The notes: generated by a model not told the origin, from the letters alone. Shown: positions 5,539 through 22,368, counted from the first letter of the stretch. The stretch: DNA of 29,150 nucleotides from Candidatus Saccharimonadia bacterium (GCA_023257055.1 JALRDG010000043.1:1-29150); one strand, 5' to 3'. A program made the numbers and translations.

Positions 5539-5575
5539 AGTATCCTTAAGTATACCGGTTCATATTTTTAGTGTT

Positions 5576-5591
5576 CGTAAGAATTATTACA
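5576..5591. promoter_or_regulatory. Candidate Crp/Fnr-family binding site shared by divergent msrA and yihY
   Basis: CGTAA-gaatta-TTACA (contains GTA-N8-TAC). It lies 37 nt from msrA's -10 (TATACT, minus, 5554-5549) and 38 nt from yihY's extended -10 (TGC-GATACT, 5614-5619). Confidence 0.62.
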
Positions 5592-5628
5592 GATAAATGA
5601 AGATACCGGCTGCGATACTAAGCGATAT

Positions 5629-6615
5629 ATGAAACAATTTATTACACTACTGACAAAGTTGCCATTATGGGTGTACGGGGTTGGCCTCGGTATGTTGGCG
5701 CTGCTAGTTACGGCCGGCGCTGGCGCTAAAGAACGGTATATTGACGCCGCCGATAAACCAGCCGATCTATCAATGAAAGATTGGCGTAATGCGCTTATGG
5801 AAACAAAAGATGCGCTCAAAGACAAAAATATAAATATGATTGCTGCCGGTATCAGTTATTTTTCCTCATTGGCATTTTTTCCGCTCATTGCTGCCGCGGT
5901 TGCGATTGCGTTTTTGGCTATAACGCCCGAGCAAATTGAAACTTTGTTTACGTCTTTGGAAGGCTATTTACCTCCCGATGTAGCAAGCCTTCTATCTGAA
6001 CAGCTGTCAAAACAGGCCTCTTCCGATAAAGGTAATCTGCTCGTAGCTATCGGCGCTATTCTAGTTTCGTTATTCAGTGCGTCGGGAGCTATCGATAAAC
6101 TGATTAAGGGTCTCAGTATTGCCTATGACACCGAAGAAACTCGTGGATTTGTGAAGTTAAAACTGCTCAGTATTGCCCTAACCTTTGCCGGAATCTTGAT
6201 TGGTTTCGTTATTGTCGGCCTACTGGCCTTAAATAATTCGATTCTTGGTGCTGTCGGCATTGGCGGTGTGACTGCATGGATTATTTTGGCACTTCGATGG
6301 GTGTTGCTGATTGTTATTATATCTCTCGTCCTCGCAGCATTATTTCGTTATGGTCCCGACCGCCCAACGGCAAAATGGCAGTGGGTGAGCTGGGGTGCTA
6401 TTGCAGCAACGATATTATGGCTGCTGGGAACAATTGCCTTCTTTGTATACGTGCAATATTTTGCAAACTTTACGCAGTCGTACAGTATCTTTGCCGGTAT
6501 CATCATCTTAATGATGTGGCTGAATCTTTCCGCGCTTATTATGCTGATTGGAGCGCAAGTAAACCATCGACTTGAAACGAAAACCAGCCGACCGAAAGTC
6601 CTCAATTTTAAGTAA
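5629..6615 (+). CDS. yihY: YihY/virulence factor BrkB family membrane protein
   Basis: MIAAGISYFSSLAFFP, LFSAS, AYDTEETRG, FRYGPDR...WQWVSWGA and FANFTQSYSIFAGIIILMMWLNLSA.IGA follow the family pattern. Confidence 0.9.
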   Translation: MKQFITLLTKLPLWVYGVGLGMLALLVTAGAGAKERYIDAADKPADLSMKDWRNALMETKDALKDKNINMIAAGISYFSSLAFFPLIAAAVAIAFLAITPEQIETLFTSLEGYLPPDVASLLSEQLSKQASSDKGNLLVAIGAILVSLFSASGAIDKLIKGLSIAYDTEETRGFVKLKLLSIALTFAGILIGFVIVGLLALNNSILGAVGIGGVTAWIILALRWVLLIVIISLVLAALFRYGPDRPTAKWQWVSWGAIAATILWLLGTIAFFVYVQYFANFTQSYSIFAGIIILMMWLNLSALIMLIGAQVNHRLETKTSRPKVLNFK

Positions 6616-6717
6616 AAAGCAAGCTTTTCGCGTTGTAAAAACTAAATGCTACGATTGTTGACCCCGCGAGATTGCAGTGTTTAAATACGAAGGTATTAAT
6701 TATAACAAGGGGAAGAC

Positions 6718-7974
6718 ATGAAGCAGCTACGATATGTATTGCTAAGTGGATTGATGGTGGGCTCTCTAGCTTTTGCACAAAGTGCAACGGTTTTGGCAGC
6801 CGAGCAAATAACGGAAGCAGAAAATATGACACGCGAGTACGGCACACAGGAGGTGTGGTCGGACAGTACAGCCTCTGGCGGTAAAAAGCGTATTCTTTGG
6901 AATAATGGTGCTGCATACGGCACACTAAAGGCATCGGGCGGTTTTACGCAAATTGACATCCGAGCCAAGGGTGATCACTATGGATCGGCGTATCCAAAAG
7001 TGGATGTGTGGGTCGACCATGTCTTTATCAAAACGATTTCGCTCGACAGTGAATACTGGAAAACGTTTTCAGTGACGGGTAATTGGGCTGCCGGTGACCA
7101 TCGTTTGTATCTTGAATACACGAACGACCATAAGCACCGAGGTGTTATTCTGGATTCAGCGGTCGCGGCAAATGTTACGACACCAACAGAGCCAACACCA
7201 ACTGAACCGGTACCAACGATTCCTGGAGATAACACCAATGGTTCTGGCGGCGCGAAAACCGATCAGACATTTCTTTCGTATTCGAACGGAACATATACCT
7301 CCCGGTATCACCTTTATGCGGCCGGACTTGATTGGACGAAGCCAGTCGGCGCATTGATTTATGCGGACGGTTCGGGTGAATACGGCCTGAAGAACCCATC
7401 GAGCACCTATCTTCTTGCGGGGACAAACGGTCTCGTGAATGTCGCTAAGCGAAACAACATGGTACTTATTACCCCATTCGCACCAAATACTGCCTGCGCT
7501 GATGGCGGCGGCTCCTGCTGGTATCAGGGTGATTCTGTTGGCTATACAAAATGGGCTGAATCACTTGTGCAGGATATCTACACGAAATACCCAATTGATA
7601 AAAGTCGTGTAGCGATGGGTGGCTATTCATCGGGTGCGCAACTAGCGGCACGCTATTGGACGCCATCGGGTGCCGCGCAGCGAACCATGAATGACGGAGT
7701 CATTGTTTCTATCTCTTGTGGCGGTAATCCTGCCATGACCGAGACTACGTATACGACAGCATTCAAGGCGAATGTGCACATGAACTGGAATACAGGTGAT
7801 CAAGACGATTCATGTCCACACACAGCTACCTGGAGTACAAACGGTGGTTATACGCACTACACAAATCTAGGCTTTAACACTTCCCGTGATATTTTGCCTG
7901 GAGTGACGCACAACCGTTCTGGACAGTTCGGTAATATTGTGGAAGCACAAATCAAAGAACACGTTAAGCTGTAA
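6718..7974 (+). CDS. Secreted protein: signal peptide, carbohydrate-binding-module-like beta domain, Pro/Thr linker, alpha/beta-hydrolase (esterase/PHB-depolymerase-like) domain
   Basis: Signal MKQLRYVLLSGLMVGSLAFA; CBM-like segment (YPKVDVWVD...W..F...GDH.L.L.YTND); linker TTPTEPTPTEPVPT; nucleophile elbow GYSSG; candidate Asp (GDQDD) and His (GVTHN). Confidence 0.75.
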   Translation: MKQLRYVLLSGLMVGSLAFAQSATVLAAEQITEAENMTREYGTQEVWSDSTASGGKKRILWNNGAAYGTLKASGGFTQIDIRAKGDHYGSAYPKVDVWVDHVFIKTISLDSEYWKTFSVTGNWAAGDHRLYLEYTNDHKHRGVILDSAVAANVTTPTEPTPTEPVPTIPGDNTNGSGGAKTDQTFLSYSNGTYTSRYHLYAAGLDWTKPVGALIYADGSGEYGLKNPSSTYLLAGTNGLVNVAKRNNMVLITPFAPNTACADGGGSCWYQGDSVGYTKWAESLVQDIYTKYPIDKSRVAMGGYSSGAQLAARYWTPSGAAQRTMNDGVIVSISCGGNPAMTETTYTTAFKANVHMNWNTGDQDDSCPHTATWSTNGGYTHYTNLGFNTSRDILPGVTHNRSGQFGNIVEAQIKEHVKL

Positions 7975-7991
7975 ATAGTTGACGTAACTAC

Positions 7992-8028
7992 ACAATACAG
8001 GCCGTGTATATGCGGCCTGTATTGTTTT
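7992..8028 (+). terminator. Intrinsic terminator
   Basis: acaatacaggccg ... cggcctgtattgt (13-bp stem) running into a T-run, just after the stop at 7974. Confidence 0.8.
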
Positions 8029-8066
8029 GCCAAAAGAGTTCATCTATAAGGAAGAGTTGCCTGGCT

Positions 8067-9134
8067 TTAAAATGTGCGATTCGTAGCTTTGTCGATGAGT
8101 GCTTTAAAAGTAGCTTGCTTATCTACGCTGACATTCATTTCTGAAATGAGTTCATTGGCATGGATCGAGAGAGTTCGAACGTACTGTTCGGTTAATTCTT
8201 TGGCGCCACTTGCAGCGATAGCGTCTTTCAAATGATCGATTTCTTCATGGGTTGCGTGCGGGTTGCCAAAAACATCCCAAAAGGCATCGGTCTGTTCGAC
8301 GGTAGTTATTTCAAGATACTTCTCGATAAGATAGGTGTGTTTGCCTTCTCGTATGTCACCGCGACTAGATTTCCCCGTTGTTTCTTCATCGCCGAAGCAG
8401 CCAATGATGTCGTCGGTCAGCTGATACGCAATGCCAAGAATTTCGCTATATTTACTGAGTACCATACGTTGTTGCTCGGTTGCGCCAGCCAAGGCCGCTC
8501 CGGTAACTAAAGGAGTGATAAAAGAGTAACTCGCAGTTTTGTATCTGGCAATTAACAAAGCGTCTGTTTTTTCGAATTCTTTGAACGCACCTTCCGTGTC
8601 GAGCAGTTCACCTCCGCAGACCTCGAAAATTCCAGCACTAAGTAGGGAAGTTGCTTTTATTTTCAGTGTGTCTGAAAGTTCACTCGCCGCAATGCATTGG
8701 TAGGCGCCGGATAGTAAAAGGTCTCCGCCAAGAATCGCAGCTCCTTGGCTATAATGTCGCCGAACGTGAGGGTCACTGACGTGCGGGGCATACAGCTGCA
8801 TGTACGATCCCGTGATATTCGATACGCCATATCGAATATCATCTCGATCGATAATGTCATCATGAACGAGTAGCCCGAGATGAAGCAGCTCTTGCGCGAC
8901 TGCGACAGGGATAATTGACTGTGTGTCGTTTCCGCCAAATGCCTCGTACGCGAGAATAGTCATTTGAGGCCGTAATCTTTTTCCTCCTGCAGTCGAGAGA
9001 GACTGAATTGTTTGCCACAGACGGGCGTAATCAGGGTGTATAGCCTGAGCGTTATCAATTGCCTCTTGCAGAAAACTTTCAAGCTTGGTAGAAATAAGTT
9101 CTGGTGTGTCTGCGTGATGAAAGAGATTTTGCAT
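8067..9134 (-). CDS. Polyprenyl diphosphate synthase (trans-prenyltransferase, GGPP-synthase/IdsB-CrtE-like)
   Basis: GGKRLRP, first Asp-rich motif LVHDDIIDRD..RYG, G(G)ELLD, RYKTASYS, second motif AYQLTDD, DIREGK.T. Confidence 0.92.
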   Translation of the reverse strand: MQNLFHHADTPELISTKLESFLQEAIDNAQAIHPDYARLWQTIQSLSTAGGKRLRPQMTILAYEAFGGNDTQSIIPVAVAQELLHLGLLVHDDIIDRDDIRYGVSNITGSYMQLYAPHVSDPHVRRHYSQGAAILGGDLLLSGAYQCIAASELSDTLKIKATSLLSAGIFEVCGGELLDTEGAFKEFEKTDALLIARYKTASYSFITPLVTGAALAGATEQQRMVLSKYSEILGIAYQLTDDIIGCFGDEETTGKSSRGDIREGKHTYLIEKYLEITTVEQTDAFWDVFGNPHATHEEIDHLKDAIAASGAKELTEQYVRTLSIHANELISEMNVSVDKQATFKALIDKATNRTF

Positions 9135-9208
9135 ATTGTCGTCTTATTTTATCATAGCCACTTACCTCGACGGTGTGAAAAACGCCTACACCTGGTACTA
9201 TTAGAAGT

Positions 9209-10126
9209 ATGATTTCATATCTCCGCTCTACGCATTATCGACCGGCCATCAAACAGCGGCAAAGTCTGCAGCCGGGTTGCTGGGTTCGTTGCGAGAAGCC
9301 GTCTGAAGCTGAACTGGAGAAGCTGATTAATCTCGGGCTGGATGCTGATATCCTCCATGACACACTCGATCCACACGAGGTGCCACGCGTCGAGCTTGAT
9401 GGCGACTGGACGTACTTTATTACACGCTTACCAGACACTGACGACAACTTTAACGACTATACGACACCTATCTTGTTCGCAATCGGTCGTGAATATATTG
9501 TTACGGTTGGACGAGATTCGCTAGGGCGCCTGTGGCAGCCATTTATCGACAACGTCCAAGCACCGACAACGCAAAAAACGAAGGTCTTCATGCTGATGAT
9601 CGATGCAATCATACGGCAGTATTCCACGCGAGTCGCTTCTATCAATCGCCAGATGCGCGCAGCTACAACCGATATTGTCAATTTACGTCCGAAAGAAATC
9701 GCTAATATCGTTGAATACGAACGAAAACTCAATGATTATCTTGACGCTCTCATTCCAACGAACACTTCGGTGGAAAAAATTCTCAGTGGCAAGTTATTGC
9801 AGTTGTACGAAGACGATCGCGAAACTGCCGAAGATCTCTCGATTGATCTCGAGCAGCTAATTTCTCGTTGTAAAAGCTTGCTCCGTACGATTACGAACTT
9901 GCGTGATTCGTATCGTGCGGTAATGGATACACGTTTGAACGAGACAATCCGTACACTGACGCTCATTACTTTAGCACTGACAATTCCAACGATGTTGGCG
10001 GGATTATTTGGTATGAACGTAGCGCTACCGGTAAACCCTGAATCGCCTGTTGTTTTTTGGTTTGTCGTAGCGCTCAGTGTGGCTGCGGCCGGAAGTTTAA
10101 GTATGTATTTTAATCGAAAACGATAA
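9209..10126 (+). CDS. corA: CorA-family Mg2+/divalent cation transporter (copy 1)
   Basis: DTLDPHEVPRVE, LNETIRTLT.IT.A..IPT.LAGLFGMNV (GMN motif) and two C-terminal TM helices. Confidence 0.9.
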   Translation: MISYLRSTHYRPAIKQRQSLQPGCWVRCEKPSEAELEKLINLGLDADILHDTLDPHEVPRVELDGDWTYFITRLPDTDDNFNDYTTPILFAIGREYIVTVGRDSLGRLWQPFIDNVQAPTTQKTKVFMLMIDAIIRQYSTRVASINRQMRAATTDIVNLRPKEIANIVEYERKLNDYLDALIPTNTSVEKILSGKLLQLYEDDRETAEDLSIDLEQLISRCKSLLRTITNLRDSYRAVMDTRLNETIRTLTLITLALTIPTMLAGLFGMNVALPVNPESPVVFWFVVALSVAAAGSLSMYFNRKR

Positions 10127-10144
10127 GGGGACGTAGAAATATCA

Positions 10145-10825
10145 ATGTCGAACGATCATAAAAAATATCCTCGATACCTCATTACAGCACTCTTGCTAGC
10201 ACTTGGGGGATTTACGCTACTCGCTATTGGGTTCCTTGGTGTTATGCGATTTGTCGTATCTGGTGCAAGTCAATCGTACGACGAGCGTGTATTACTGGCA
10301 ATTAATGCATGGTCAACGCCGCTGCTCGATACGACTATGCGTACTATTACAGATTTTGGATCAGTTGGCGTGGCGGCAGTCGTAGTCATTGCCGCGCTTT
10401 TGTATGTACGCAACCATCACACCTACCGGGCACTGTTTATCGTGAGTGCTGTCGGCGGTGCTGCAATTTTGAGCGTTGTGTTGAAACTTTTATTCTCTCG
10501 CCCTCGCCCCGATTTATGGCAGCATCTTGTGGTGGAAGAAACATTTTCCTTTCCAAGCGGGCATGCCATTGCAAGCAGTGCACTCGCGTTTAGTGTCATG
10601 ATCTTACTGTGGCGTACACGATATCGTTGGCTGGGGGTGATAACTGGGGTTGTGTATATGTTGACAATTGGTTTCAGTCGAATGTATCTCGGCGTTCATT
10701 ATCCAACTGATATTATTGCCGGCTGGCTTGTCAGTGCGGCATGGGTGCTGCTTGTGGCAACAATGCTGTGGCATCGTCGACAGGTACGTCATGCCATGAA
10801 AGCGTTAGACGATACAACGAAGTGA
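10145..10825 (+). CDS. PAP2-family lipid/undecaprenyl-phosphate phosphatase
   Basis: C1 KLLFSRPRP, C2 SFPSGH and C3 SRMYLGVHYPTD, with multiple TM helices. Confidence 0.92.
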   Translation: MSNDHKKYPRYLITALLLALGGFTLLAIGFLGVMRFVVSGASQSYDERVLLAINAWSTPLLDTTMRTITDFGSVGVAAVVVIAALLYVRNHHTYRALFIVSAVGGAAILSVVLKLLFSRPRPDLWQHLVVEETFSFPSGHAIASSALAFSVMILLWRTRYRWLGVITGVVYMLTIGFSRMYLGVHYPTDIIAGWLVSAAWVLLVATMLWHRRQVRHAMKALDDTTK

Positions 10826-11674
10826 TTGCTGCACGCTTGCTATAGTAATTTCGGTGTGCGCCGGTAAGCGTATAATCTCGCCATCTATTTGCATACGCGT
10901 GGAATGCGTTGTTATAAAAGAGAAAGATTTGGCTTGCGGGGCTGTTTCAATACCAACGGTCGAAGCCTTAAGGAGGTACTGTAGTAGCCGAGGCCCGCTA
11001 GTGGAATGGAGGGCGGATATCTCAAACAGGCCGTCATCTATCTCGGCCGTTTTCGAGAGCTTAAGGACCTTAGACATACGACCGTTCGTGCTAAAAACAA
11101 GGCTATCATAGCGACGACGCCCGCCGTCTATGATGATACGAACAGAGCGAATGCGAAACAAGTTACGAATAACCAGCCATAACTCATTGATGCGATTAAG
11201 TTTCGTCTGATTAAGTTCATGTCCTATTTGTGGGGTTATGCCGATACCGGCGTAGGAATGACCATAGTAGGTATGAGGGCCAAAAGAGATTTTCAACGCG
11301 TCAATTAATCGAACATCACCTAGTCGAATCCGTTCGACCGTATTGCCCTCATGAACAAAGTGATAGTGATCGTTTGCATTACCGGACGGCAGGAGGCCGC
11401 AGACCGCTCGTGACTCTAGTGTGGAGTTGCTGAGAACGGCATTTACAATTTCATGGTATGTGCCATCACCACTTGACGCAATAAGCAGCGTCTCGGCTTC
11501 AGTGGCATGCTCACGGGCAAAGTCGCCCGCATGTCCGGCGTAATCTGTTTTTAAGAGCTCCACCTGCAGGTGGTCAATTGACGTAAGCTTATCGAACAGT
11601 TCTTTGGCAGTAGTATAGCTGCTACCAGTGCTGACGGGATTATAAAGAATGTATACCTGGGTGAGAATGGCCAT
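10805..11674 (-). CDS. Soluble diacylglycerol/lipid kinase family protein (DAGK_cat, DgkB/YegS-like)
   Basis: ILYNPVS, SSGDGTYHEIVN, GLLPSGNAND, IDDGLFEI, MQIDGE. Start moved from 11722 to the ATG at 11674 (MAILTQVYILYNP), which has TGC-TATAGT 6 nt upstream. Confidence 0.88.
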   Translation of the reverse strand: MAILTQVYILYNPVSTGSSYTTAKELFDKLTSIDHLQVELLKTDYAGHAGDFAREHATEAETLLIASSGDGTYHEIVNAVLSNSTLESRAVCGLLPSGNANDHYHFVHEGNTVERIRLGDVRLIDALKISFGPHTYYGHSYAGIGITPQIGHELNQTKLNRINELWLVIRNLFRIRSVRIIIDGGRRRYDSLVFSTNGRMSKVLKLSKTAEIDDGLFEISALHSTSGPRLLQYLLKASTVGIETAPQAKSFSFITTHSTRMQIDGEIIRLPAHTEITIASVQQSLRCIV

Positions 11675-11707
11675 ACAGGTACTATAGCAGGAGTAAAGTA
11701 GAAGATT

Positions 11708-11723
11708 TGTTATATATCTCACT
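11708..11723. promoter_or_regulatory. Candidate Crp/Fnr-family binding site shared by the divergent lipid kinase and yeaQ/ymgE-like genes
   Basis: TGTTA-tatatc-TCACT lies 37 nt from TATGAT (11745-11750, plus) and 37 nt from TATAGT (11686-11681, minus). It is 17/20 identical to the site at 22290. Confidence 0.68.
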
Positions 11724-11784
11724 GTTCGTCGGCTACAAGGCCGATATGATGGAGATACACACGAAATAAGTAAAGGAGATATAT

Positions 11785-12054
11785 ATGTTAGATATCATTC
11801 TGTGGATCCTGTTCGGTGCATTAGCCGGATGGATAGCATCAAAAATTATGAAGACCGATGCGGAACAAGGTGCGATCGCGAATATCATTGTTGGTATTCT
11901 TGGTGCCTTCATTGGTGGTTTCCTGATGCAGGCATTGACCGGCCAGCCAACCGACACCTTCAGTATTGGCGGCTTGCTCGTTGCCATTCTTGGCGCAGTT
12001 GTTCTGCTTGCCATCTACAAGGCCATCACTGGTCGTCGCGGCGTTACTCGCTAA
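11785..12054 (+). CDS. GlsB/YeaQ/YmgE family stress-response membrane protein (transglycosylase-associated)
   Basis: [16 protein letters not shown]...[15 protein letters not shown]...[16 protein letters not shown]; RBS AAAGGAG at 11772-11778. Confidence 0.93.
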
Positions 12055-12084
12055 TTCAACTACACACTCTCACTCTCTCACTTT

Positions 12085-12117
12085 ACCGCTCGCGCCCTCT
12101 CGCGAGCGGTTCTTTTT
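12085..12117 (+). terminator. Intrinsic terminator
   Basis: accgctcgcg-ccctct-cgcgagcggt followed by tcttttt. Confidence 0.85.
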
Positions 12118-12177
12118 ATGTACTATGGTTACTAAAAGATAGAAAAAATACCCCAATCAACCTATAATAGAGCTACG

Positions 12178-13962
12178 ATGATACAGCGATTACGATCGGT
12201 AGCTTTAACCCATTTACGGGCCTTGCGAGTAAAACGCTTTTTTTCCTCGACGTACTTAATTGCTTTGACGATCGGATTCGGGATCGTCCTTTGTTTATTA
12301 ACCGTCCTTTCAGCACGTGCGCTACATATTGCCAATCAAGACATGGTAGAGGTAGCAATTGAGCGACGAAAGCGTGAAGATGCTTTGGAGATAAACCGAG
12401 CGATGTCAGCTCATTCTCAGGCGCTTCTCAGCTCGGTCGGGTTAATGAACAGTGTCAGGATGACGCCGGAGGTATGGGGTCGATTCATTGCCTCCTATCG
12501 TAGCGAGGATGCATTTCCGGCAATGTTTGCAATTGGCGCGGCGGAATATATTCGATCAGAAAATATACCGGAGCTAGAAGCGCGCCTTTCAGACCAGTAT
12601 CAGCGTCCGGTTGAGGTATTTCCTAGGCCGACTGGAGAATTTAGTGAACCGGTGCTGTATGTCGAGCGAGGTGATAGCTTGGCACAGCAGACCATCGGAT
12701 TAGACATGATGCAATTGCCAGAGCGCAATGAGGCGGCTGAACTAGCCACGGACACGAACTCAATCGTACTGACCGACCCTGCTCATATTATTTCCGATAC
12801 GACGACACTCGAGGAAGACCCCCGGTCTGCCATCTTCATGTTTGCACCGTATTATGTGATCGGTAGCGATCTTTCGACCGTTGAAAAACGACAAAGGGCA
12901 ATACGTGGCCATGTATATATCGCGTTTCATACACAAGAGCTATTTTCAAAGATATTTTCAGAAAATAATTTTAATAACATTCGGTTGGTTATATATCAAA
13001 AAGACGACCCGGAAAAAGATTTATTATATGCATCTCCCAATATTTCCGCTCATCGACGCCAACAGAACGTAAAGACTGATCTTACGTTACTGAATAAAAC
13101 GTACACGTTGGAATACCAATTTAACGCTGCTTCGATATTGTCGCCGGTTCAGCGGTATGCACCACTACTGACGCTCCTGTTTGGATTGACGATTAGCATC
13201 GTGTTACCTGCTTTGATGCACAATATTGTGCGCGCTCGCCAGAATGCCTTGCATTTTGCAAATGAGCAAAAGATTAAAAAGGCGCAGGACGAACTACTTT
13301 CACTTGCTTCGCATCAGCTCCGAACGCCCGCTACGGCCACTAAGCAGTACATTGGCATGGTATTGCAAGGTTTTATGGGTGACGTGCCGAAAGAGCAACA
13401 GGCGTTCTTACAGAAGGCCTACGACAGCAATGAACGTCAGTTGCGTATCATCAATGATATTCTTCATGTTGCTAAGCTTGATGCTGGCCGCATCGTACCA
13501 TCCATGAAACCGTTTGACATCACGGCTACTGTCAAAGGCGTGCTCGAAGATACGGCTTCCGATGTTCGAAAAGCAGGTATTACTATTCGGCGTCAGCTTG
13601 GTCGCTCGTATATGTTGACAGGGGATGAATACATGATTCGGATGATTGTAGAGAACCTGGTAAGTAATGCAATTAAATACACGCCTTCTGGCGGCAAGGT
13701 GACTGTCGCGGCTCGGCGAGAGGCGCATGGCTATCATCTTAGCGTGACGGATACTGGTATAGGTATCGCAAAGCAGGACTTTGATCGTTTATTCAAGCAG
13801 TTCTCGCGGATAGAGAGCGATCATAGTGCGACAGTGCCAGGTAGTGGCGTTGGGCTGTACTTGGCGCAAAATCTTGCACATCTGCACGGCGGCAAGATTA
13901 AAGTAGTGTCAAAAATTGGCAAAGGATCGACCTTTACACTGTATTTGCCAAAAAATATGTAA
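12178..13962 (+). CDS. CHASE-domain membrane sensor histidine kinase
   Basis: Two TM helices flank a CHASE-like region (PVLYVE, IGLDM...RNEA..LA.DT...LT.P). Transmitter motifs ASHQLRTP, NLVSNAIKYT, VTDTGIGI, GSGVGLY. Confidence 0.9.
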   Translation: MIQRLRSVALTHLRALRVKRFFSSTYLIALTIGFGIVLCLLTVLSARALHIANQDMVEVAIERRKREDALEINRAMSAHSQALLSSVGLMNSVRMTPEVWGRFIASYRSEDAFPAMFAIGAAEYIRSENIPELEARLSDQYQRPVEVFPRPTGEFSEPVLYVERGDSLAQQTIGLDMMQLPERNEAAELATDTNSIVLTDPAHIISDTTTLEEDPRSAIFMFAPYYVIGSDLSTVEKRQRAIRGHVYIAFHTQELFSKIFSENNFNNIRLVIYQKDDPEKDLLYASPNISAHRRQQNVKTDLTLLNKTYTLEYQFNAASILSPVQRYAPLLTLLFGLTISIVLPALMHNIVRARQNALHFANEQKIKKAQDELLSLASHQLRTPATATKQYIGMVLQGFMGDVPKEQQAFLQKAYDSNERQLRIINDILHVAKLDAGRIVPSMKPFDITATVKGVLEDTASDVRKAGITIRRQLGRSYMLTGDEYMIRMIVENLVSNAIKYTPSGGKVTVAARREAHGYHLSVTDTGIGIAKQDFDRLFKQFSRIESDHSATVPGSGVGLYLAQNLAHLHGGKIKVVSKIGKGSTFTLYLPKNM

Positions 13963-13973
13963 GATAATTCATA
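13958..13973. promoter_or_regulatory. Candidate Crp/Fnr-family binding site upstream of the single-domain receiver gene
   Basis: TGTAA-gataat-TCATA overlaps the kinase stop codon. It is 37 nt before TAATAT (13995-14000), or 35 nt before the overlapping TATAAT at 13993. Confidence 0.5.
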
Positions 13974-14007
13974 GCTTATTATCAAAATATCGTATAATAT
14001 AAAATAT

Positions 14008-14379
14008 ATGTCAGGTAAAGTACTCATTGTAGAAGACGAAATAGCATTGTCTGATGTCTATAAAACCTTGCTCGATCAGGCCGGGTATGATGTTCGCGTC
14101 GCCGAAAACGGCGAGGTGGCGCTGGGAGTCGCGGAAGAATTTCAGCCAGAGATGATACTACTAGATCTTCGAATGCCGGTGCTTGATGGAATCGGCTTTT
14201 TACACAAATATGATCTTAAGAACGCACATCCGGACGTAAAGGTTGTCGTGTTCAGTAATTATGATATGCAAAAAGAGATTGATGAAGCATATTCGCTTGG
14301 TGCCGAGCGCTATCTATTAAAGGCGTGGGCGTCACCAAAAGAGCTTATCGAGCTAGTAAAGACGACACTTGGTAAATAA
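14008..14379 (+). CDS. Single-domain response regulator (receiver only)
   Basis: IVEDE, ILLDLRMPVLDG, FSNY, YLLKA; 123 aa with no output domain. Confidence 0.93.
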   Translation: MSGKVLIVEDEIALSDVYKTLLDQAGYDVRVAENGEVALGVAEEFQPEMILLDLRMPVLDGIGFLHKYDLKNAHPDVKVVVFSNYDMQKEIDEAYSLGAERYLLKAWASPKELIELVKTTLGK

Positions 14380-14388
14380 TAGTTATTG

Positions 14389-14417
14389 AAAACCCGCCAC
14401 ATAAAGGCGGGTTTTTT
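14389..14417. terminator. Bidirectional intrinsic terminator
   Basis: aaaacccgcc-acataaa-ggcgggtttttt between convergent genes. Confidence 0.85.
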
Positions 14418-14431
14418 GTTGGCAGGTGATA

Positions 14432-15109
14432 TTACAGGAGACTGTTAGTTGGATGAATAGCCGCAAAGCTGTCATCGCCAATGGAGCTTTCGATTGACTT
14501 GCGGTCAATAACGAAGCGTGAATTCTGATATTCAATGCTGCCTTGCTCCTTGAGCTTCTTCAGTTCAATAGTGGAGGTTTCACGCGTTAAGCCGGTCAAA
14601 CTTGCGAAGGTAGAGTGGGTGATCTTGAAGTTAATAAAATAACGACCATCGCGCTGCTGTCGACCAAAGCGGAGGAGGAGGAAGTATACCATCAGCTTAA
14701 CTTTATCGGCAGCACGAGTCTGATTTAAGGCATTAACTTGCAGTTGTGATGAGGTATGACTGCGGACAAAGTAGTCGAATACATGTTGTCGCGCGTCTTC
14801 ATCCGAGGTGATGATTGCAAGTAATTCATCCTTTGGAATTGTGTATACTTCGCAGTCTTCAAGTGCTTCATAATAAAATAGCGTACTTGAAGACTGTCCG
14901 TATATCCAGGCATCAGGAAAGATATCACCTTCGGTGTGAAAGTTAATAATCAGTTCATTACCATGATTATCAATGCGGTACACTTTTATAGTGCCGCGCT
15001 TAAGGACATGGGCCTGACGAGGAACTTCTCCCTGATACAGGATAATAGATTTGCGTTTATAAACACGCTTGGTTGCCACATCTTTTAGTAGAGGTAGAAG
15101 TGTACGCAT
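14432..15109 (-). CDS. Crp/Fnr-family transcriptional regulator
   Basis: cNMP-binding-fold motifs (YKRKSIILYQGE, LKRGTIKVY, YEALEDCEV) and C-terminal HTH ITHSTFASLTGLTRETSTIELKKLKEQGSI. Confidence 0.92.
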   Translation of the reverse strand: MRTLLPLLKDVATKRVYKRKSIILYQGEVPRQAHVLKRGTIKVYRIDNHGNELIINFHTEGDIFPDAWIYGQSSSTLFYYEALEDCEVYTIPKDELLAIITSDEDARQHVFDYFVRSHTSSQLQVNALNQTRAADKVKLMVYFLLLRFGRQQRDGRYFINFKITHSTFASLTGLTRETSTIELKKLKEQGSIEYQNSRFVIDRKSIESSIGDDSFAAIHPTNSLL

Positions 15110-15205
15110 ACCTCTGTATCATACCATTTTTTGGCTATTTGTGCACTTTTTTCGTAAAGTTTGCTAGATATGCATAAGTAGAAAAGTACGCTATACTGCT
15201 TATGA

Positions 15206-16129: not shown

Positions 16130-16163
16130 TATGTAGGTATAGGCTGTGAAATGCAGCAAATTC

Positions 16164-16192
16164 TTGACGGCTATAGGCAAGCTTGCTATTAT
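16164..16192 (+). promoter_or_regulatory. Near-consensus sigma70 promoter with no long ORF downstream
   Basis: TTGACG-17 nt-TATTAT. Confidence 0.65.
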
Positions 16193-16290
16193 AAATATTG
16201 CGTCTTGCAAGAAAAACGCAAATTTAAAAACTATTTTAAAGGTCGACATACGCAAGACATAACGCTTCATAAAGGAGTACAACTACGCAC

Positions 16291-16383
16291 ATGCCAATAG
16301 CCATCGAATTTGTGTCTACTAGGCGCAAAAAGATTGCAGTGGATGTGGTGCCCGCCGAATGGCAACTGTATATCGCTCATTAG
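16291..16383 (+). CDS. Possible 30-aa small protein (MPIAIEFVSTRRKKIAVDVVPAEWQLYIAH), or part of an sRNA
   Basis: Sits between the promoter at 16164 and the terminator at 16401. AAAGGAG at 16271-16277 is 13 nt upstream, which is long. No recognised homology. Confidence 0.3.
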   Translation: MPIAIEFVSTRRKKIAVDVVPAEWQLYIAH

Positions 16384-16400
16384 AACATATGAGTTCACAA

Positions 16401-16439
16401 ATAAAATCACCCCAAGGCACCGGGGTGATTTTATGTTTT
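16401..16439. terminator. Bidirectional intrinsic terminator
   Basis: ataaaatcacccc-aaggcacc-ggggtgattttat (13-bp stem) with T-rich tails on both strands. Confidence 0.85.
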
Positions 16440-16450
16440 ATTTGTACGAA

Positions 16451-17128
16451 TTACTTTTGTTTCGCGATTTCAGATTCAATAGCTTTACTTAATGCTTCTA
16501 CGCTGCTCCATTCTTCTTGTGGAAGCTGACGACCATTAAGAATAAAGGTAGGGGTGCTCGTGACGTTATGCTTCTTTCCAAGCGCCAGATCAAAATTGAT
16601 TTTCTCTGTTACGCTCTGACTAATGATGTCTTCTTTGTATTGAGCGATATTGAGACCGATTTGTTTTGCATATTGTTCGAATATGCCGCCACGGTCATCA
16701 ATTGAAGCTGTTTCCCATTCTTTCTGGGCTGTATAAAGGGTATCGTGCATTTCCCAGTATTTGTCTTGTTTTGCGGCGGCTTCCGCACTGGCAGCAGCGA
16801 CGCGTGCATTTGGATGGATGCTAGTAAGTGGGAAATTCCGAAAAACAAACGCAATGTCGTCTTTGTAGGTTTCTTTCACTTCCTGAACGGTCGGGTGAGC
16901 TGATGCGCAGCCAGGACACTGGAAGTCGCCGTATTCAATGAGTGTTACTTTGGCATCTTTATTACCGTACACGTGGTCACCTATGTTTCCCGATTGCGCA
17001 GTTGGTGCCTGAATGGCATTTTCCTTCACTGTCTCAACGTCAATTGAGTTCTGACCAGACAAGTATACTAGTCCTCCTAAAAGCAGTACGCTCAGTGCTG
17101 CAAAAATAATCCATGCTTTATTCGTCAC
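16451..17128 (-). CDS. Membrane-anchored DsbA-family thioredoxin-fold oxidoreductase
   Basis: N-terminal anchor, EYGDFQCPGC, FVFRNFPL..IHPNA and cis-Pro loop VTSTPTF; GTG start with GGAGG RBS. Confidence 0.9.
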   Translation of the reverse strand: MTNKAWIIFAALSVLLLGGLVYLSGQNSIDVETVKENAIQAPTAQSGNIGDHVYGNKDAKVTLIEYGDFQCPGCASAHPTVQEVKETYKDDIAFVFRNFPLTSIHPNARVAAASAEAAAKQDKYWEMHDTLYTAQKEWETASIDDRGGIFEQYAKQIGLNIAQYKEDIISQSVTEKINFDLALGKKHNVTSTPTFILNGRQLPQEEWSSVEALSKAIESEIAKQK

Positions 17129-17213
17129 AATATATTCCTCCCTCGGATATCTTTACTTAGTATAGCGAAAGCGCTATGGGTACGCAACCAAGAGTACGCT
17201 ACAATAAAAGCAT

Positions 17214-18239
17214 ATGGAAATCCTGTTGAGTATTTTATTTTGTATCGTTGGCGTACTGCTCCTTATTGTGATGGGTGTTCGCCCCCAGGAGCAGACACAT
17301 AGTACGTTTGAGCTCCGGCGAAGAAAACAAAAAGGCGACAAGGAGGCGGAATACCTCTTGCGCAGAAATGAACTGCTCCATGATGTGTTCTCATTGCAGC
17401 GAGTCGTGACGGCGCTGCTGCTTGTCATCTTGTCGGCAATTAGTGTCGAACTGTTTTATTGGCTTCTTGGTTTGGTAATAACATTGCTGATTGCTCTCGA
17501 GGCGGGGGCGGTGGCACGGTTATCGCTCCTGCAGCATCGTTCTCAAAAACTCTATCAGGCGGTTGAGCCGAAGCTACTTGCGATCATTGAACGCTATCCG
17601 TTAATATTTAAGATGATTCGCAGTGTCTCTCCAGTTCCAGCCGACACCTACGACATCGAATCACGAGAGGAACTGCTCCATATGATAGAACAATCTGGTG
17701 GTGTACTTCGTGCTAACGAGAAAAAAATGATTACTAACGCGCTGAATTTTGATGAGCGGACGGTTAGCGAAATAATGGTCTCGCGCAGTAACGTTACAAT
17801 GATTTCGGCCGATGAGGTACTTGGTCCACTGGTCGTGAATGATCTTTACTCGACAGGCTATACACGTTTTCCAGTGTATGGGGATTCAATCGACGATATT
17901 GTCGGTGTAATTTACTTGGAGCAGCTAATGAAAATTGACGGCGCCAAGACGGCAACCACGAAAACTGCGCACCAAATGATGGAGCGACGTGTCTACTATA
18001 TTCGTGAAGACCAGTCACTTCAGCACGCGCTGTCAGCGTTCCTTCGTATGCATCATCACCTGTTTGTCGTGCTAAATGAACACCGTGAAACGGTGGGAAT
18101 TGTGACACTTGAAGACTGTCTTGGCGCATTGTTGGGAAGAAAAATACACGACGAATTTGATCAGCATGATAACAGATCGGTCGTCGCAGGGCGGGTGCTG
18201 GCGAAAAACAATCACTCAAAAAACGGTCAAGAGGTGTAG
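17214..18239 (+). CDS. CBS-pair membrane protein (CNNM/CorB-CorC, hemolysin-like Mg/Co efflux family)
   Basis: N-terminal TM helices, then SREELLHMI, NALNFDERTVSEIMVSR, TGYTRFPVY, HLFVVLNEH.ETVGIVTLED and GRKIHDEFD. Confidence 0.85.
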   Translation: MEILLSILFCIVGVLLLIVMGVRPQEQTHSTFELRRRKQKGDKEAEYLLRRNELLHDVFSLQRVVTALLLVILSAISVELFYWLLGLVITLLIALEAGAVARLSLLQHRSQKLYQAVEPKLLAIIERYPLIFKMIRSVSPVPADTYDIESREELLHMIEQSGGVLRANEKKMITNALNFDERTVSEIMVSRSNVTMISADEVLGPLVVNDLYSTGYTRFPVYGDSIDDIVGVIYLEQLMKIDGAKTATTKTAHQMMERRVYYIREDQSLQHALSAFLRMHHHLFVVLNEHRETVGIVTLEDCLGALLGRKIHDEFDQHDNRSVVAGRVLAKNNHSKNGQEV

Positions 18240-18295
18240 CTTCTAAGCGTAAGCAGTGGAAAAAACTTGCAAAAGCGCGTAAAATATAACTAATT

Positions 18296-20062
18296 ATGAC
18301 ACGAACACTTATTCGCGATGCACTGCACGCAATCGACCAGACAATTACCGTAAAAGGCTGGGTTCATACTCGCCGTGACCACGGAGGCTTGATATTCGTT
18401 GACATACGTGACCATACGGGCGTATTGCAGCTTGTCATTCAGCCGGAAAACGATGTCGCGTTCGCCACTGCTGAACAGCTTCGTGACGAATATGTCATTG
18501 CAGTGAATGGCAAGATCAAAGAACGGACACCGGACCTTCGTAATGATCGATTGGCAACCGGTACTATTGAATTGGTCGTTGATGAACTGACGATTTTAAA
18601 CCGCTCCGAACCTCTGCCAATTCAAGTGCATGGTGAAGCGCAGTCGAGCGAAGAGCTTCGTCTGAAGTACCGCTATCTTGATCTTCGCCGCGAAAAAATG
18701 CAGGCAACCCTCCGACAGCGTTCGGACTACTACCGTGTCATACGTGATTATATGCAAAAAAATGAGTTTACCGAAGTAACGACGCCTGTCCTGGCAAACT
18801 CCAGCCCAGAGGGCGCCCGAGATTTCCTCGTCCCATCTCGCGTTCATCCAGGTAAATTTTACGCATTGCCGCAAGCGCCTCAACAGTTTAAGCAACTACT
18901 AATGGTCGGTGGTGTGCCTCGATACTATCAAATTGCTACGTGCTTCCGTGATGAAGACCCGCGAGCGGATCGTCTATACGGTGATTTCTATCAGCTCGAT
19001 CTTGAAATTGCGTTTGCAGAAACAGGTGAAGAAATTCGTCAAACGATGGAGCCGTTAATAAAGCAGCTTGTAACTGATTTCGCCGGCAAGAAACTTCTGC
19101 ACGAAGATATTCCACGTATTACGTACCGCGAAGCGATGGATCGTTTTGGCTCGGATAAGCCGGATCTTCGATACGGCATGGAGCTTATCGACCTGACTGA
19201 CATATTTGTGTCATCTGAGTTTAGTGTGTTTAAGAAAGCTGCTGAATCTGGCGTCGTTAAAGCTATTCGCGTTGAAGGCGGCTCTGGGTTATCCCGTTCG
19301 CAAATCGATTCGTTTACTGATATTGCTAAAAAAGAAGGCGCCGGTGGACTAGCGTATATTAGTTTTGTCGATGGTGAAGCGAAATCACCAATTAGTAAAT
19401 TCTTATCTGACAGTGAAATTGCAGAAATGCAAAAACGCACAGGTGCAAAAAACGGCGACACGCTCTTCTTTGGTGCTGATACGCGCGACACCGTAAACAA
19501 GGTACTTGGTAAATTACGGATTGAATTTGCAGATCATTTTAACCTGAAAGATCCTAATCTGGTTGCTCTTGCCTGGGTGATAGATTTCCCATTCTATGAA
19601 TGGAATGACGGTGAGCGAAAAGTTGACTTTGGACATAATCCATTCTCGATGCCAAAGGGTGGTCTGCAATCGCTTGAAGCGGCGGACGATCCGCTCACAA
19701 TCGTTGCCGATCAATACGACATGGTCATGAACGGGTACGAAATTTGCTCAGGGGCTGTCCGAAACCACAATCCAGAAGTTATGTATAAGGCGTTTGGTAT
19801 TCTAGGTTACGATGAGGCGTATGTGGACGCCAAGTTTGGCGCTATGATCAATGCATTTAAGTATGGGGCGCCACCTCACGCCGGCTGTGCGTTTGGATTA
19901 GATCGAATCTTCATGGTACTTATCGGCGAAGAGAATATTCGTGAAGTTGTCGCATTTCCAAAGAATGGCTCTGGTGTCGATGTTATGATGAACTCGCCAA
20001 GCGTAGTCGACAAAGCACAGCTCGACGATCTCAGCTTACACATTGAAGAGAGAGCGCGCTAG
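18296..20062 (+). CDS. aspS: Aspartate-tRNA ligase (bacterial type, with GAD insertion)
   Basis: RRDHGGLIFVDIRD, LRLKYRYLDLRR, motif 1 SSPEGARDFLVPSR, LPQAPQQFKQLLM, motif 2 CFRDEDPRADR, motif 3 GAPPHAGCAFGLDR. Confidence 0.97.
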   Translation: MTRTLIRDALHAIDQTITVKGWVHTRRDHGGLIFVDIRDHTGVLQLVIQPENDVAFATAEQLRDEYVIAVNGKIKERTPDLRNDRLATGTIELVVDELTILNRSEPLPIQVHGEAQSSEELRLKYRYLDLRREKMQATLRQRSDYYRVIRDYMQKNEFTEVTTPVLANSSPEGARDFLVPSRVHPGKFYALPQAPQQFKQLLMVGGVPRYYQIATCFRDEDPRADRLYGDFYQLDLEIAFAETGEEIRQTMEPLIKQLVTDFAGKKLLHEDIPRITYREAMDRFGSDKPDLRYGMELIDLTDIFVSSEFSVFKKAAESGVVKAIRVEGGSGLSRSQIDSFTDIAKKEGAGGLAYISFVDGEAKSPISKFLSDSEIAEMQKRTGAKNGDTLFFGADTRDTVNKVLGKLRIEFADHFNLKDPNLVALAWVIDFPFYEWNDGERKVDFGHNPFSMPKGGLQSLEAADDPLTIVADQYDMVMNGYEICSGAVRNHNPEVMYKAFGILGYDEAYVDAKFGAMINAFKYGAPPHAGCAFGLDRIFMVLIGEENIREVVAFPKNGSGVDVMMNSPSVVDKAQLDDLSLHIEERAR

Positions 20063-20066
20063 CGAT

Positions 20067-21530
20067 ATGATCGCCTGGTTCGTCGAAACACTACGATTCA
20101 TAGGCGGGTTTTCAACAATCTGGCTAATAATTGAGTGGGTACTGCGAGTGATCGCCGTCTTTGTCATGCCGAAAAATCGACGCCCAACAGCCGGCCTTAC
20201 GTGGCTCACGTTAACATTCCTTATACCGCCGGCGGGCTGGGTGGCGTATTTGATTCTCGGGAATTCAAAATTACCTCTTTACCGACGACGCATCCAGAAA
20301 CACCTTGATGATATCTTGCGTCAGACAAAACTCAGCAATCGGGTGAATACGCCGCCTATTTCACGAAAATTCGCTGATGTTGAGCGGCTCGCTTGGTCAC
20401 TGACGCACTTACCGGTCAGTACGGCGAAATCATACGAAATCATCAGCGATTATCATGCAATATTTCATGCGATTGCTCGCGATATTGACGCAGCAAAACA
20501 TACGATTCATCTCGAATATTACACACTGGTGTTCGACCGTGAAACCGAAATTATTTTTACTGCGATTGAACGAGCGGTGGAGCGCGGTGTCAAGGTCCGC
20601 GTATTGTATGACGCCTATGGATCATGGAAGCACCGAAAACAGTTTAAACATGGTCGTCGGCGTCTGCGTGCCTGTGGTGCAGATGTTCGAGCTTCGCTAC
20701 CGTTCCGCCTACCGCTTCAAGGGTATACTCGGCCAGACTTACGAAATCACCGTAAGCTCGTGACAATTGACGGTCAGATTGGCTATAGCGGATCGCAGAA
20801 TATTATAAGTCGTGGATATCACCGTCGGGATGGCATTATTTATAACGATCTGGTCATGCGCTGTACCGGGGCTATCGTCCGACAGCTTGATATTGTTTTT
20901 GCTGCCGACTGGTATGCTGAAACAGAAGAAATCTTAATTGAAGAACAGGAACTTACCGCCAAGCAGCAGCGTGCTGGTATACATCGCATGCAAGTATTGC
21001 CGAGTGGTCCCGGGTATGAATACGAAAACAATCTGAAGATATTCAATACGCTCATCTACTCGGCAGAAAAAAGCATTCTTATCGTCAACCCGTATTTCGT
21101 CCCCGATGAGTCCCTCATGACGGCGCTTGTTAGTGCGGCTCGTCGTGGCATACAAGTGACAATGGTGAACTCAAAGGTGATGGATCAGTGGATGGTGGGC
21201 CATGCTCAGCGGTCGTACTACGAGGAGCTATTCTTAGCAGGTGTGCGAATATATTGGCACGAGAAGCCAAGCCTGCTGCATTCAAAATTCATGATTATCG
21301 ATGATGAGGTAGCGACGATTGGTTCTAGTAATATGGATATTCGTTCGTTTGAGCTCGATCATGAACTTACTCTTATCTGCTATGACCAGGCCGTTACGAA
21401 GGAGCTTGCTACTGTTGCTGCAGGATATTTGGACGCCTCTCAAGAGGTGGATAAGATTCGTTGGCTTAAACGTCCGCGCTACCGCCAGGTATTTGATAAT
21501 ATTGCCCGGCTCACATCATCATTGCAGTAG
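20067..21530 (+). CDS. cls: Cardiolipin synthase (PLD superfamily)
   Basis: N-terminal TM pair (WL...FLIPPAG..AY.ILG) and two HKD motifs, RNHRKLVTID and LHSKFMIIDD. Start moved from the TTG at 20043 (inside aspS) to the ATG at 20067. Confidence 0.92.
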   Translation: MIAWFVETLRFIGGFSTIWLIIEWVLRVIAVFVMPKNRRPTAGLTWLTLTFLIPPAGWVAYLILGNSKLPLYRRRIQKHLDDILRQTKLSNRVNTPPISRKFADVERLAWSLTHLPVSTAKSYEIISDYHAIFHAIARDIDAAKHTIHLEYYTLVFDRETEIIFTAIERAVERGVKVRVLYDAYGSWKHRKQFKHGRRRLRACGADVRASLPFRLPLQGYTRPDLRNHRKLVTIDGQIGYSGSQNIISRGYHRRDGIIYNDLVMRCTGAIVRQLDIVFAADWYAETEEILIEEQELTAKQQRAGIHRMQVLPSGPGYEYENNLKIFNTLIYSAEKSILIVNPYFVPDESLMTALVSAARRGIQVTMVNSKVMDQWMVGHAQRSYYEELFLAGVRIYWHEKPSLLHSKFMIIDDEVATIGSSNMDIRSFELDHELTLICYDQAVTKELATVAAGYLDASQEVDKIRWLKRPRYRQVFDNIARLTSSLQ

Positions 21531-21584
21531 CATTTACATCAGGCGTATACTAAAGAAGTAAGTTAATGAGGAGCAGTTGATCCC

Positions 21585-22166
21585 ATGAAGCAATCAAACG
21601 ACGATCGACACGTTACACCGGAGTCTGAAGATTCGAAACCAGAACGAAACGAACCAATCAAGGTTCCTGTCATAGACCCTATGCGAAGGCGTCGAGGTGT
21701 TTGGCGAAAAATTGCCATCGGACTCCTTATCTGCTTGGTCATTGCCGGGTTAGTGGCGGCCTTTTTGTGGATGAATCGATCAAGTGACAAAATAAAAATT
21801 CGTGCCTTACAAAGCGACGTTACGTCACTCAACAAGCGTCTAGCGATGGCACAGCGGGAACAGGATGCGCTGGAAAATCGCATTGCTGGCATGCGAGCAG
21901 TTGCTGCAGTCGGTCAAGGTAACGACGAAGAGCAGATAGTGGCTGCGACAAGAGTATATGCCAGGACTTTTGTAGAGGATGGCGCTACGCTTGCTGTCGA
22001 GGTAAGCAAACGTGACGGTAGTGAAGCAGTAGCGGTGTTGCGTCATGAAGGTACGAAGTATAATATTTATCTCAAAAAAGCTGGAGAAATATGGCAACCG
22101 GTTTGGGCGGGCAAGGGATCACCTGCGGAGAACACACGTAAGCAGTACAACCTAACGATAGAGTAG
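21585..22166 (+). CDS. Hypothetical single-pass membrane protein with coiled coil
   Basis: Basic RRRR then a TM helix (IAIGLLICLVIAGLVAAFLW) and heptad region LQSDVTSLNKRLAMAQREQDALENRI; GAGGAG RBS. Confidence 0.75.
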   Translation: MKQSNDDRHVTPESEDSKPERNEPIKVPVIDPMRRRRGVWRKIAIGLLICLVIAGLVAAFLWMNRSSDKIKIRALQSDVTSLNKRLAMAQREQDALENRIAGMRAVAAVGQGNDEEQIVAATRVYARTFVEDGATLAVEVSKRDGSEAVAVLRHEGTKYNIYLKKAGEIWQPVWAGKGSPAENTRKQYNLTIE

Positions 22167-22179
22167 CCTTTACATGCTA

Positions 22180-22208
22180 TTGACAATTATAAAAGCTTAT
22201 GCTAATAT
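22180..22208 (+). promoter_or_regulatory. Near-consensus sigma70 promoter (distal promoter of the ytxG/ytxH-like pair)
   Basis: TTGACA-17 nt-TAATAT with TG at the extended -10 position. Confidence 0.65.
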
Positions 22209-22289
22209 AAAAATGTTGAACGCGTAAAACAAACAATCAATAACAACCTAACATACCAAAAAGTTCCTGTAACTCGAGTATCAGCGAAC

Positions 22290-22305
22290 TGTAATATATT
22301 TCACT
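22290..22305 (+). promoter_or_regulatory. Candidate Crp/Fnr-family binding site (proximal promoter of the ytxG/ytxH-like pair)
   Basis: TGTAA-tatatt-TCACT, 37 nt before GATAAT (22327-22332); 17/20 identical to 11708-11727. Confidence 0.65.
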
Positions 22306-22368
22306 GCTCAATTAACCGCAATGGTTGATAATCGAAAGTGACAATAACGAAACGAAAGGATTGTCGTT

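Follow-up and report, generated by a model that had tools for sequence, protein, structure and literature searches.

Escherichia coli CRP activates class II promoters of the galP1 type, and one CRP site can serve divergent promoters. The cyanobacterial NtcA acts from GTA-N8-TAC at -41.5 as a class II activator where promoters have no -35 element, and FNR carries a cysteine cluster for [4Fe-4S] and has the site TTGAT-N4-ATCAA. The closest analogue of the system described here, however, would seem to be formed by SdrP (TTHA1359) of Thermus thermophilus and DdrI of Deinococcus radiodurans. SdrP binds AWTGTRA-N6-TYACAWT in vitro, accepts neither a 5- nor a 7-bp spacer, carries the recognition helix VRETVTK (SRETVGR in CRP) and is a probable class II activator, mainly in oxidative stress, with sites that adjoin or overlap the -35 region (PMC8465061). 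It is thought to need no effector (PMC8465061, PMC11253593), and DdrI binds DNA without cyclic AMP (cAMP), cells that have lost it being more sensitive to heat, radiation and oxidation (PMC11253593). SdrP already provides an example of a class II Crp that is independent of cAMP, linked to stress and directed to the consensus reported below (PMC8465061), so the concept is not new. Here we analyse a 29,150-nucleotide (nt) stretch of a Candidatus Saccharimonadia bacterium, which is the entire contig C45 and is hereafter called the window, where a first-pass annotation had proposed a Crp/Fnr-type regulon from four scattered sites. That proposal gains from the enrichment of the motif, the presence of a Crp-family gene and a conserved synteny that includes the sites. 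It is likely, in our view, that the four sites are operators of a genome-wide Crp/Fnr regulon of about 40 sites in class II position, with the product of the Crp-family gene in the window (14432-15109) as the most probable binder. This reading draws directly on the observed motif, its spacer specificity, its bias towards intergenic DNA, its fixed distance to -10 hexamers, its conservation and its linkage to the regulator gene.

The comparison with described systems shows both likeness and divergence. The consensus TGTRA-N6-TYACA, the R-E-T recognition helix and the specificity for a 6-bp spacer are those of SdrP; as in SdrP and DdrI, the Arg-Ser pair that contacts cAMP is not kept, and several predicted targets are oxidative-damage genes. 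Nevertheless, the kinship with SdrP is at family level only (PDB 2zcw, E = 3.4e-6, weaker than the match to NtcA), and the system differs from SdrP and DdrI in belonging to another phylum, in a genome of about 1 Mb with one sigma factor found, in its targets, in its linkage to a CHASE histidine kinase and a receiver, and in having many promoters that are predicted to be leaderless and some that are bidirectional. With E. coli CRP it shares a 16-bp core with a 6-bp spacer, TGTGA-like half-sites, a centre predicted near -41.5 that replaces the -35 element, R-E-T and sites placed within divergent pairs (5576 and 11708). In contrast to CRP, the half-site admits A or G at position 4, and Ile or Val takes the place of R185. 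NtcA is the best solved-structure match (E = 1.3e-8) and half of the half-sites are TGTAA, which contains GTA-N8-TAC; yet the helix has R-E-T where NtcA has R-V-T, and the targets show no tie to nitrogen control.

The motif was defined genome-wide. The genome (936 kb in 149 contigs, 87% complete) was annotated with a simple codon-usage open reading frame (ORF) picker, which called 997 genes (87% coding), and the closest public relatives of the window are metagenome-assembled genomes of Candidatus Saccharibacteria, Saccharimonadaceae and Saccharimonadales. The pattern TGTNA-N6-TNACA was found at 19 distinct positions in intergenic DNA and at 6 in coding DNA, despite a sevenfold excess of the latter; changing the spacer to any length of 0-5 or 7-12 nt leaves only 0-8 intergenic positions. 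A symmetrized matrix grown from these genome-wide seeds, whose scores are given here in bits, converges on tTGTAA-tatata-TTACAa with G nearly as frequent as A at half-site position 4, that is, on the palindrome tTGTRA-N6-TYACAa, specific to the 6-nt spacer. At a score of at least 12 bits there are 41 fully intergenic matches against 3.6 +/- 1.8 in 100 dinucleotide-preserving shuffles, and at least 16 bits are reached by 20 against 0.24, the site counts being inflated by about one because a 119-nt stretch including one site is identical in C99:2422-2540 and C126:about 992-1110 (it reaches the end of C99, and is either assembly redundancy or a short repeat). The four 16-mers listed in the first-pass annotation, at 5576, 11708, 13958 and 22290, are found exactly as given, and a direct comparison of 11708 with 22290 again gives 17 of 20 identical nt. 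When the matrix was rebuilt from all contigs but the window, to avoid circularity, they scored 17.1, 16.3, 12.1 and 15.4 bits, respectively, and were the top four positions of the window, the next best reaching 9.7. Their membership in a family of about 40 sites in this genome is thereby confirmed. Regarding the A/G choice at position 4, the pairs AA, AG and GG were observed 14, 18 and 6 times where 12.5, 18 and 6.5 are expected, so that the two halves choose independently and the half-sites form one specificity class with no sign of two. Two sub-motifs, a TGTAA type and a TGTGA type with one per paralog (see below), were rejected for this reason. An RNA element was likewise rejected, as an Rfam scan of the whole window found no RNA family and the likeness of 11708 and 22290 thus corresponds to no known leader or riboswitch.

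The sites, the predicted promoters facing them (offsets counted from the site centre) and the candidate regulator gene are as follows.

5549-5554, minus strand: -10 box TATACT of msrA (5008-5538, minus strand), offset +29 from the centre of the 5576 site; predicted near-leaderless.
5576-5591: candidate Crp-type operator CGTAA-gaatta-TTACA, common to the divergent msrA and yihY promoters; 17.8 bits.
5614-5619, plus strand: -10 box GATACT of the yihY/BrkB-family gene (5629-6615), offset +30; predicted near-leaderless.
11681-11686, minus strand: -10 box TATAGT of the lipid-kinase gene (10805-11674, minus strand), offset +29; predicted leaderless.
11708-11723: candidate Crp-type operator TGTTA-tatatc-TCACT, common to the divergent lipid-kinase and glsB (ymgE) promoters; 17.2 bits.
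11745-11750, plus strand: -10 box TATGAT of the glsB/yeaQ/ymgE-family gene (11785-12054), offset +29; predicted leader of about 28 nt.
13958-13973: candidate Crp-type operator TGTAA-gataat-TCATA, before the receiver gene; 12.9 bits.
13993-14000, plus strand: -10 region TATAATAT of the receiver gene (14008-14379); predicted leaderless.
14432-15109, minus strand: Crp/Fnr-family regulator gene (cNMP_binding and HTH_Crp_2, recognition helix TRETSTI); best candidate for the binder.
22290-22305: candidate Crp-type operator TGTAA-tatatt-TCACT, before ORF 22369-22584 and ytxH (22631-22993); 16.8 bits.
22327-22332, plus strand: -10 box GATAAT, offset +29 from the centre of the 22290 site.
22591-22606: weak and uncertain fifth candidate TGTAC-tctcat-TTACA, directly before ytxH; 10.4 bits, or 9.6 with the window left out of the matrix.

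The gene names proposed at first pass hold in Pfam (PMSR, BrkB/YihY, DAGK_cat, Transgly_assoc for YeaQ/YmgE/GlsB, Response_reg and YtxH); NCBIfam places the lipid kinase in the YegS type, the receiver is a stand-alone protein of 123 amino acids, and ORF 22369-22584 has no family match in Pfam.

The position of the sites relative to the predicted promoters is also constrained. Sites of at least 12 bits were oriented to the adjoining gene starts, and -10-like hexamers were required to have A at position 2, T at position 6 and at least 4 of 6 matches to TATAAT. Such a hexamer starts 29 or 30 nt past the site centre, equivalent to the site start +37 or +38, in 23 of 46 site-gene pairs, the other offsets between 9 and 69 averaging about 2. 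With the transcription start placed 7 nt beyond the hexamer, the centre falls at -41.5 or -42.5, so the class II spacing first claimed, to -10 boxes whose -35 elements are poor, is borne out as a position predicted from hexamers. The hexamers named for the window are all in place (GATACT at 5614, TATGAT at 11745, TAATAT at 13995 and GATAAT at 22327), a better -10 box, TATAAT, beginning at 13993 for the third of them. A genome-wide matrix scan, of the kind suggested at the outset as a check, returned both intergenic matches far above shuffles and a distance peak where it had been predicted, at +37/38. Good -35 elements are indeed rare, since over the 23 promoters the best match to TTGACA (spacer of 16-18 nt) averages 2.4 of 6, with a full TTGACA in just one. 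The right half-site TTACA was rejected as a -35 element given that its spacer to the -10 box would be 21 nt, and an alternative-sigma promoter was dismissed in view of the palindromic motif and of the single sigma-70-family gene found.

In 12 of the 23 promoters the start codon lies no more than 6 nt from the predicted start, as for msrA, yihY and the receiver gene in the window, and leaderless mRNAs may accordingly be frequent in this genome. Sites 5576 and 11708 are each equidistant from two divergent promoters; in the former case, both start codons lie 45 nt from the centre. The claim that all four sites are intergenic holds for 11708 on one condition, as this site overlaps the longest ORF of the lipid kinase (10805-11722, from GTG 11722) and is intergenic only if translation begins at ATG 11674. 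The latter is most likely the true start: it lies at +41 and gives a protein of 289 amino acids against 288 in the ortholog of the relative G002, and it would make the lipid kinase leaderless and site 11708 intergenic. Site 13958 overlaps the stop codon of the CHASE histidine kinase (12178-13962).

Conservation in other Saccharibacteria provides further support. Orthologs of the window-type crp (43-48% identity) were found at 15 loci of other genomes, all with a conserved module composed of a glsB-like gene, a kinase gene of roughly 1.7 kb and a receiver gene of roughly 0.38 kb convergent with crp. At these loci, sites of at least 12 bits recur at three positions, upstream of crp by 70-85 nt (12 loci), immediately ahead of the receiver gene (9 loci) and ahead of the glsB-like gene (5 loci), the pre-crp copy of G002 reaching only 11.2 bits; the -10 boxes of the orthologous receiver promoters are again about 29 nt from the site centre. 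In the more distant relatives G012, G022, G023, G028 and G030 the receiver site, about 1.1 kb past the crp start, is present in all five and the pre-crp site in four. In G002 and G012 the window-type gene is the sole Crp-family gene (the G002 copy is 49% identical). A matrix scan of the whole G002 genome (848 kb) gave 8 intergenic and 3 coding matches of at least 14 bits, and 7 of 27 reciprocal-best orthologs of the predicted targets keep a site of at least 12 bits there, compared with 10 of 501 in the background (Fisher p = 5.6e-6). The seven comprise the lipid kinase/glsB pair, whose shared site scores 15.3 bits, two CHAP hydrolases, a DAO-type flavoprotein and two small ORFs, often with the same distance to the gene; with 10.0 and 11.4 bits, respectively, the TrxB-like gene and the ytxH operon are weaker cases. 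The ytxH orthologs of G002, G006, G012, G023 and G024 have sites upstream, and none of at least 12.5 bits was found in the ytxH upstream regions of genomes without a Crp-family gene. Footprinting on orthologous promoters, also suggested with the first-pass annotation, thus upheld the ytxH and lipid-kinase/glsB sites and failed for msrA/yihY: yihY was found in only 3 of 30 relatives, and G002 keeps no msrA/yihY pair and carries no site there, so that site 5576 is lineage-specific.

The product of 14432-15109 is a transcription factor of the Crp/Fnr family with a cNMP-binding-type beta-barrel and a Crp-type helix-turn-helix (PF00027, 59.5 bits, cut-off 27.5; PF13545, 38.6 bits, cut-off 27), which matches NtcA, CRP, FNR and SdrP structures in PDB over residues 17-200. 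Its recognition helix does keep R-E-T (TRETS), as had been read from the translation. A second paralog, C118:3059-3691, encodes 210 amino acids with 23% identity to the window Crp, and both helices start with T-R-E-T. Neither protein fits a described subfamily, as they score 44-52 bits against curated cut-offs of 228-300 in the Fnr, CRP, NtcA, PtrA and FixK models; both belong to a subfamily without a name. In a HMMER alignment of the window protein with 4ev0, a T. thermophilus Crp-family chain, S-T stands in place of R-S and P-D in place of G-E. The R-S position corresponds to R82-S83 of CRP, which contact the phosphate of cAMP, Glu72 being a further mark of the cAMP-CRP subfamily (PMC11253593, and in line with general knowledge). 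A class III cyclase domain (PF00211) was not found in the 87%-complete genome, and the NCBIfam model for the CRP equivalog gives 44 bits where the cut-off lies at 266. The cAMP-CRP subfamily was rejected on these three grounds, and the effector of the window Crp is probably not cAMP. The NtcA subfamily was rejected because the helix has R-E-T, not R-V-T, and TIGR03697 reaches 43 bits where 245 would be needed. With one cysteine in all, and none near the N-terminus, the protein is no FNR-type iron-sulfur sensor; the FNR subfamily was rejected for the lack of a cysteine cluster, for the motif TGTRA-N6-TYACA and for an Fnr score of 46 bits against a cut-off of 228. As for the signal, the conserved linkage to the CHASE kinase and to a stand-alone receiver under predicted Crp control invites the speculation of cross-talk.

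Some observations weigh against the picture of a single activating Crp behind these sites, and they are brought together here with the alternatives that they would favour. The exact pattern TGTRA-N6-TYACA, counted in 30 relatives, shows a modest contrast, with 5.1 occurrences per Crp-containing relative against 3.9 for the reversed control (the N7 control gives 0.9, relatives without Crp 2.5 and the present genome 13); matrix-based and locus-based tests are far more informative than such counts. In addition, the ORF caller is crude, and intergenic counts and start codons in this genome are approximate. More specific is the question of the binder, for the sites could be real and be bound mainly or only by the C118 paralog, with the window Crp serving another motif or just the local module. 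The C118 gene has the same R-E-T helix and a 17.9-bit site 34 nt before its own ATG, suggestive of autoregulation. Conversely, the upstream region of the window crp (15110-15205) scores at best 5.0 bits, without the site that 12 of 15 orthologs carry, so that the window gene seems to have lost autoregulation whereas its paralog has a strong site before its own gene. Furthermore, this genome, with both paralogs, has about 3.5 times more strong sites than G002, which is without a C118-type paralog. Yet no site lies near the C118-type ortholog in G006; where the window-type Crp is the sole one, the motif is retained both at orthologous promoters and ahead of crp; the half-sites do not fall into two classes; and with TRET in both helices shared binding is as likely as exclusive. 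On balance, exclusive or predominant binding by the C118 product is unlikely. The role assigned to 14432-15109 at first pass is therefore backed by synteny and sites at the 15 and 5 orthologous loci, but the gene is not the only candidate; its product most probably is the binder, possibly sharing sites with the C118 paralog.

A second alternative concerns the sign of the regulation. Several strong sites lie just 16-34 nt from a start codon (on C39, C126, C42 and C118), overlapping the core promoter and fitting repression better; a site also covers the -35 position, and upstream of the C118 crp TATAAT lies just 17 nt from the site centre. The regulator might then be mainly a repressor, whose dimer over the -35 region blocks polymerase, the weak -35 elements being merely typical of the organism. 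Against this, the -10 spacing is phased within 1 nt as at class II promoters, where a repressor needs overlap and not phase; the scarcity of good -35 elements, though scored in site-bearing promoters alone, amounts to 1 in 23; and SdrP, CRP, FNR and NtcA all activate from this position (PMC8465061, and general knowledge). We regard a mainly repressing regulator as quite improbable. A last alternative is that the four sites match by chance, the pattern being degenerate and post hoc and the intergenic DNA rich in AT. The caveat raised at first pass was apt in that the original pattern alone is weak (6 window matches against 2.4 expected, with 2 of 100 shuffles reaching 6), but the leave-window-out scores, the shuffles, the spacer specificity, the fixed -10 distance and the conservation at orthologous promoters refute this explanation, to which we give next to no credence.

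With activation by a Crp/Fnr-family protein as the preferred reading, we infer binding and activation along the following lines. A homodimer would bind the palindrome centred about 41.5 bp upstream of the transcription start and bring RNA polymerase, carrying the single housekeeping sigma, to promoters in which a -10 box is present and a usable -35 element is lacking, in class II manner. At about half of these promoters transcription would begin on the start codon or a few bases from it and yield leaderless transcripts, and one symmetric site would serve two divergent promoters at 5576 and 11708. The conserved core of the regulon would be the neighbourhood of the regulator itself, namely the glsB-type membrane protein, the CHASE histidine kinase, the stand-alone receiver and crp, to which the ytxH operon, CHAP cell-wall hydrolases, the lipid kinase, and flavin and thiol oxidoreductases would have been added; in this genome, the set would be enlarged with msrA, yihY, ctc, a ClpB-D2-like ATPase and many unknowns. 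The 87%-complete genome yielded a single sigma-70-family gene, a finding compatible with, though no proof of, the idea that the regulator stands in for a stress sigma factor. Within a single family the regulator occurs patchily: 12 of the 18 same-family genomes searched (relatives G001-G019 belong to the family of the present genome), several of them 99-100% complete, yielded no Crp-family gene scoring above the Pfam cut-off. More tentatively, and rather doubtfully at this stage, we put forward that where Saccharibacteria have retained it, a single effector-atypical Crp may act as the cell's master positive regulator, wired to the CHASE kinase and the receiver, driving about 5% of the genes from -41.5 sites (many leaderless, some divergent) and doing the job of an alternative sigma; its patchy presence might then reflect two regulatory lifestyles in one family.

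Members of the Candidate Phyla Radiation (Patescibacteria) have very few regulators and most are not culturable alone, and to our knowledge almost nothing is known of their transcription control. A full-text search of the literature on Saccharibacteria Crp/Fnr, Patescibacteria regulons and TM7x promoters found nothing relevant. In this context, the analysis yields a testable wiring diagram, with a defined motif, a candidate regulator and its paralog, and about 40 predicted promoters with predicted starts, as well as a core module (glsB, CHASE kinase, receiver and crp) conserved across the order. It also suggests which genes these epibionts may switch on jointly, namely those for oxidative-damage repair, envelope proteins and cell-wall hydrolases, and it predicts widespread leaderless transcription. 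Since related genomes with and without the regulator exist, the prediction is open to comparison.

The predicted target set was annotated with Pfam and NCBIfam for 47 site-adjacent genes. Functions in stress, repair or protein handling are represented by a thioredoxin-reductase-like flavoprotein, an FKBP isomerase, L25/Ctc, a peptidyl-tRNA hydrolase, a CsoR-type repressor, a Zn alcohol dehydrogenase, a DAO-type oxidase and a ClpB/ClpA-D2-type AAA+ ATPase. The latter is the product of C48:7916-9241, preceded by the best site of the genome (22.6 bits), a stand-alone AAA+ protein of 441 amino acids that matches just the D2 half of ClpB/ClpA (model positions 546-842). Membrane proteins include TerC/DUF475, DedA/VTT and SPW, and at the cell surface or wall there are two CHAP(+LysM) hydrolases, a GH114-ricin protein and a GT4 transferase. 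Further targets are a type IV secretion system (T4SS)-type pilin, a PAS protein, RNase H, a baeRF6 protein, two ABC ATPases, enolase, thymidylate synthase (ThyA), the C118 crp paralog and many proteins without a family. Stress and repair (MsrA, TrxB-like, Ctc, YtxH, GlsB, ClpB-D2-like, FKBP, TerC and CsoR) make up roughly one third of the annotated targets. The likeness to the SigB regulons of Firmicutes extends to Ctc/L25, YtxH, GlsB/YmgE-type proteins, a Clp-type ATPase, thioredoxin-reductase-like enzymes and MsrA. In contrast to SigB, a dimeric activator acting with the housekeeping sigma is proposed here, and the CHAP hydrolases, GH114, enolase, ThyA and ABC ATPases are not stress genes. 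The original label of a general-stress regulon was therefore right as to the presence of stress, repair and SigB-like classes and too narrow for a set about 10 times larger and functionally mixed; the predicted output is biased to damage repair and the envelope, and is too mixed for plain "general stress".

Two further observations concern individual target genes. The CHAP-domain protein C39:2618-3808 is 96% identical to its counterpart in G002 (G002:C1:11906-13096), the median ortholog identity between the two genomes being 63%, and the 24-nt Crp-type site before the gene is identical in both, which suggests that the CHAP gene may have been transferred recently together with its promoter. Finally, the yihY ortholog of G017 (G017:C2:16454-17245) contains one in-frame TGA.

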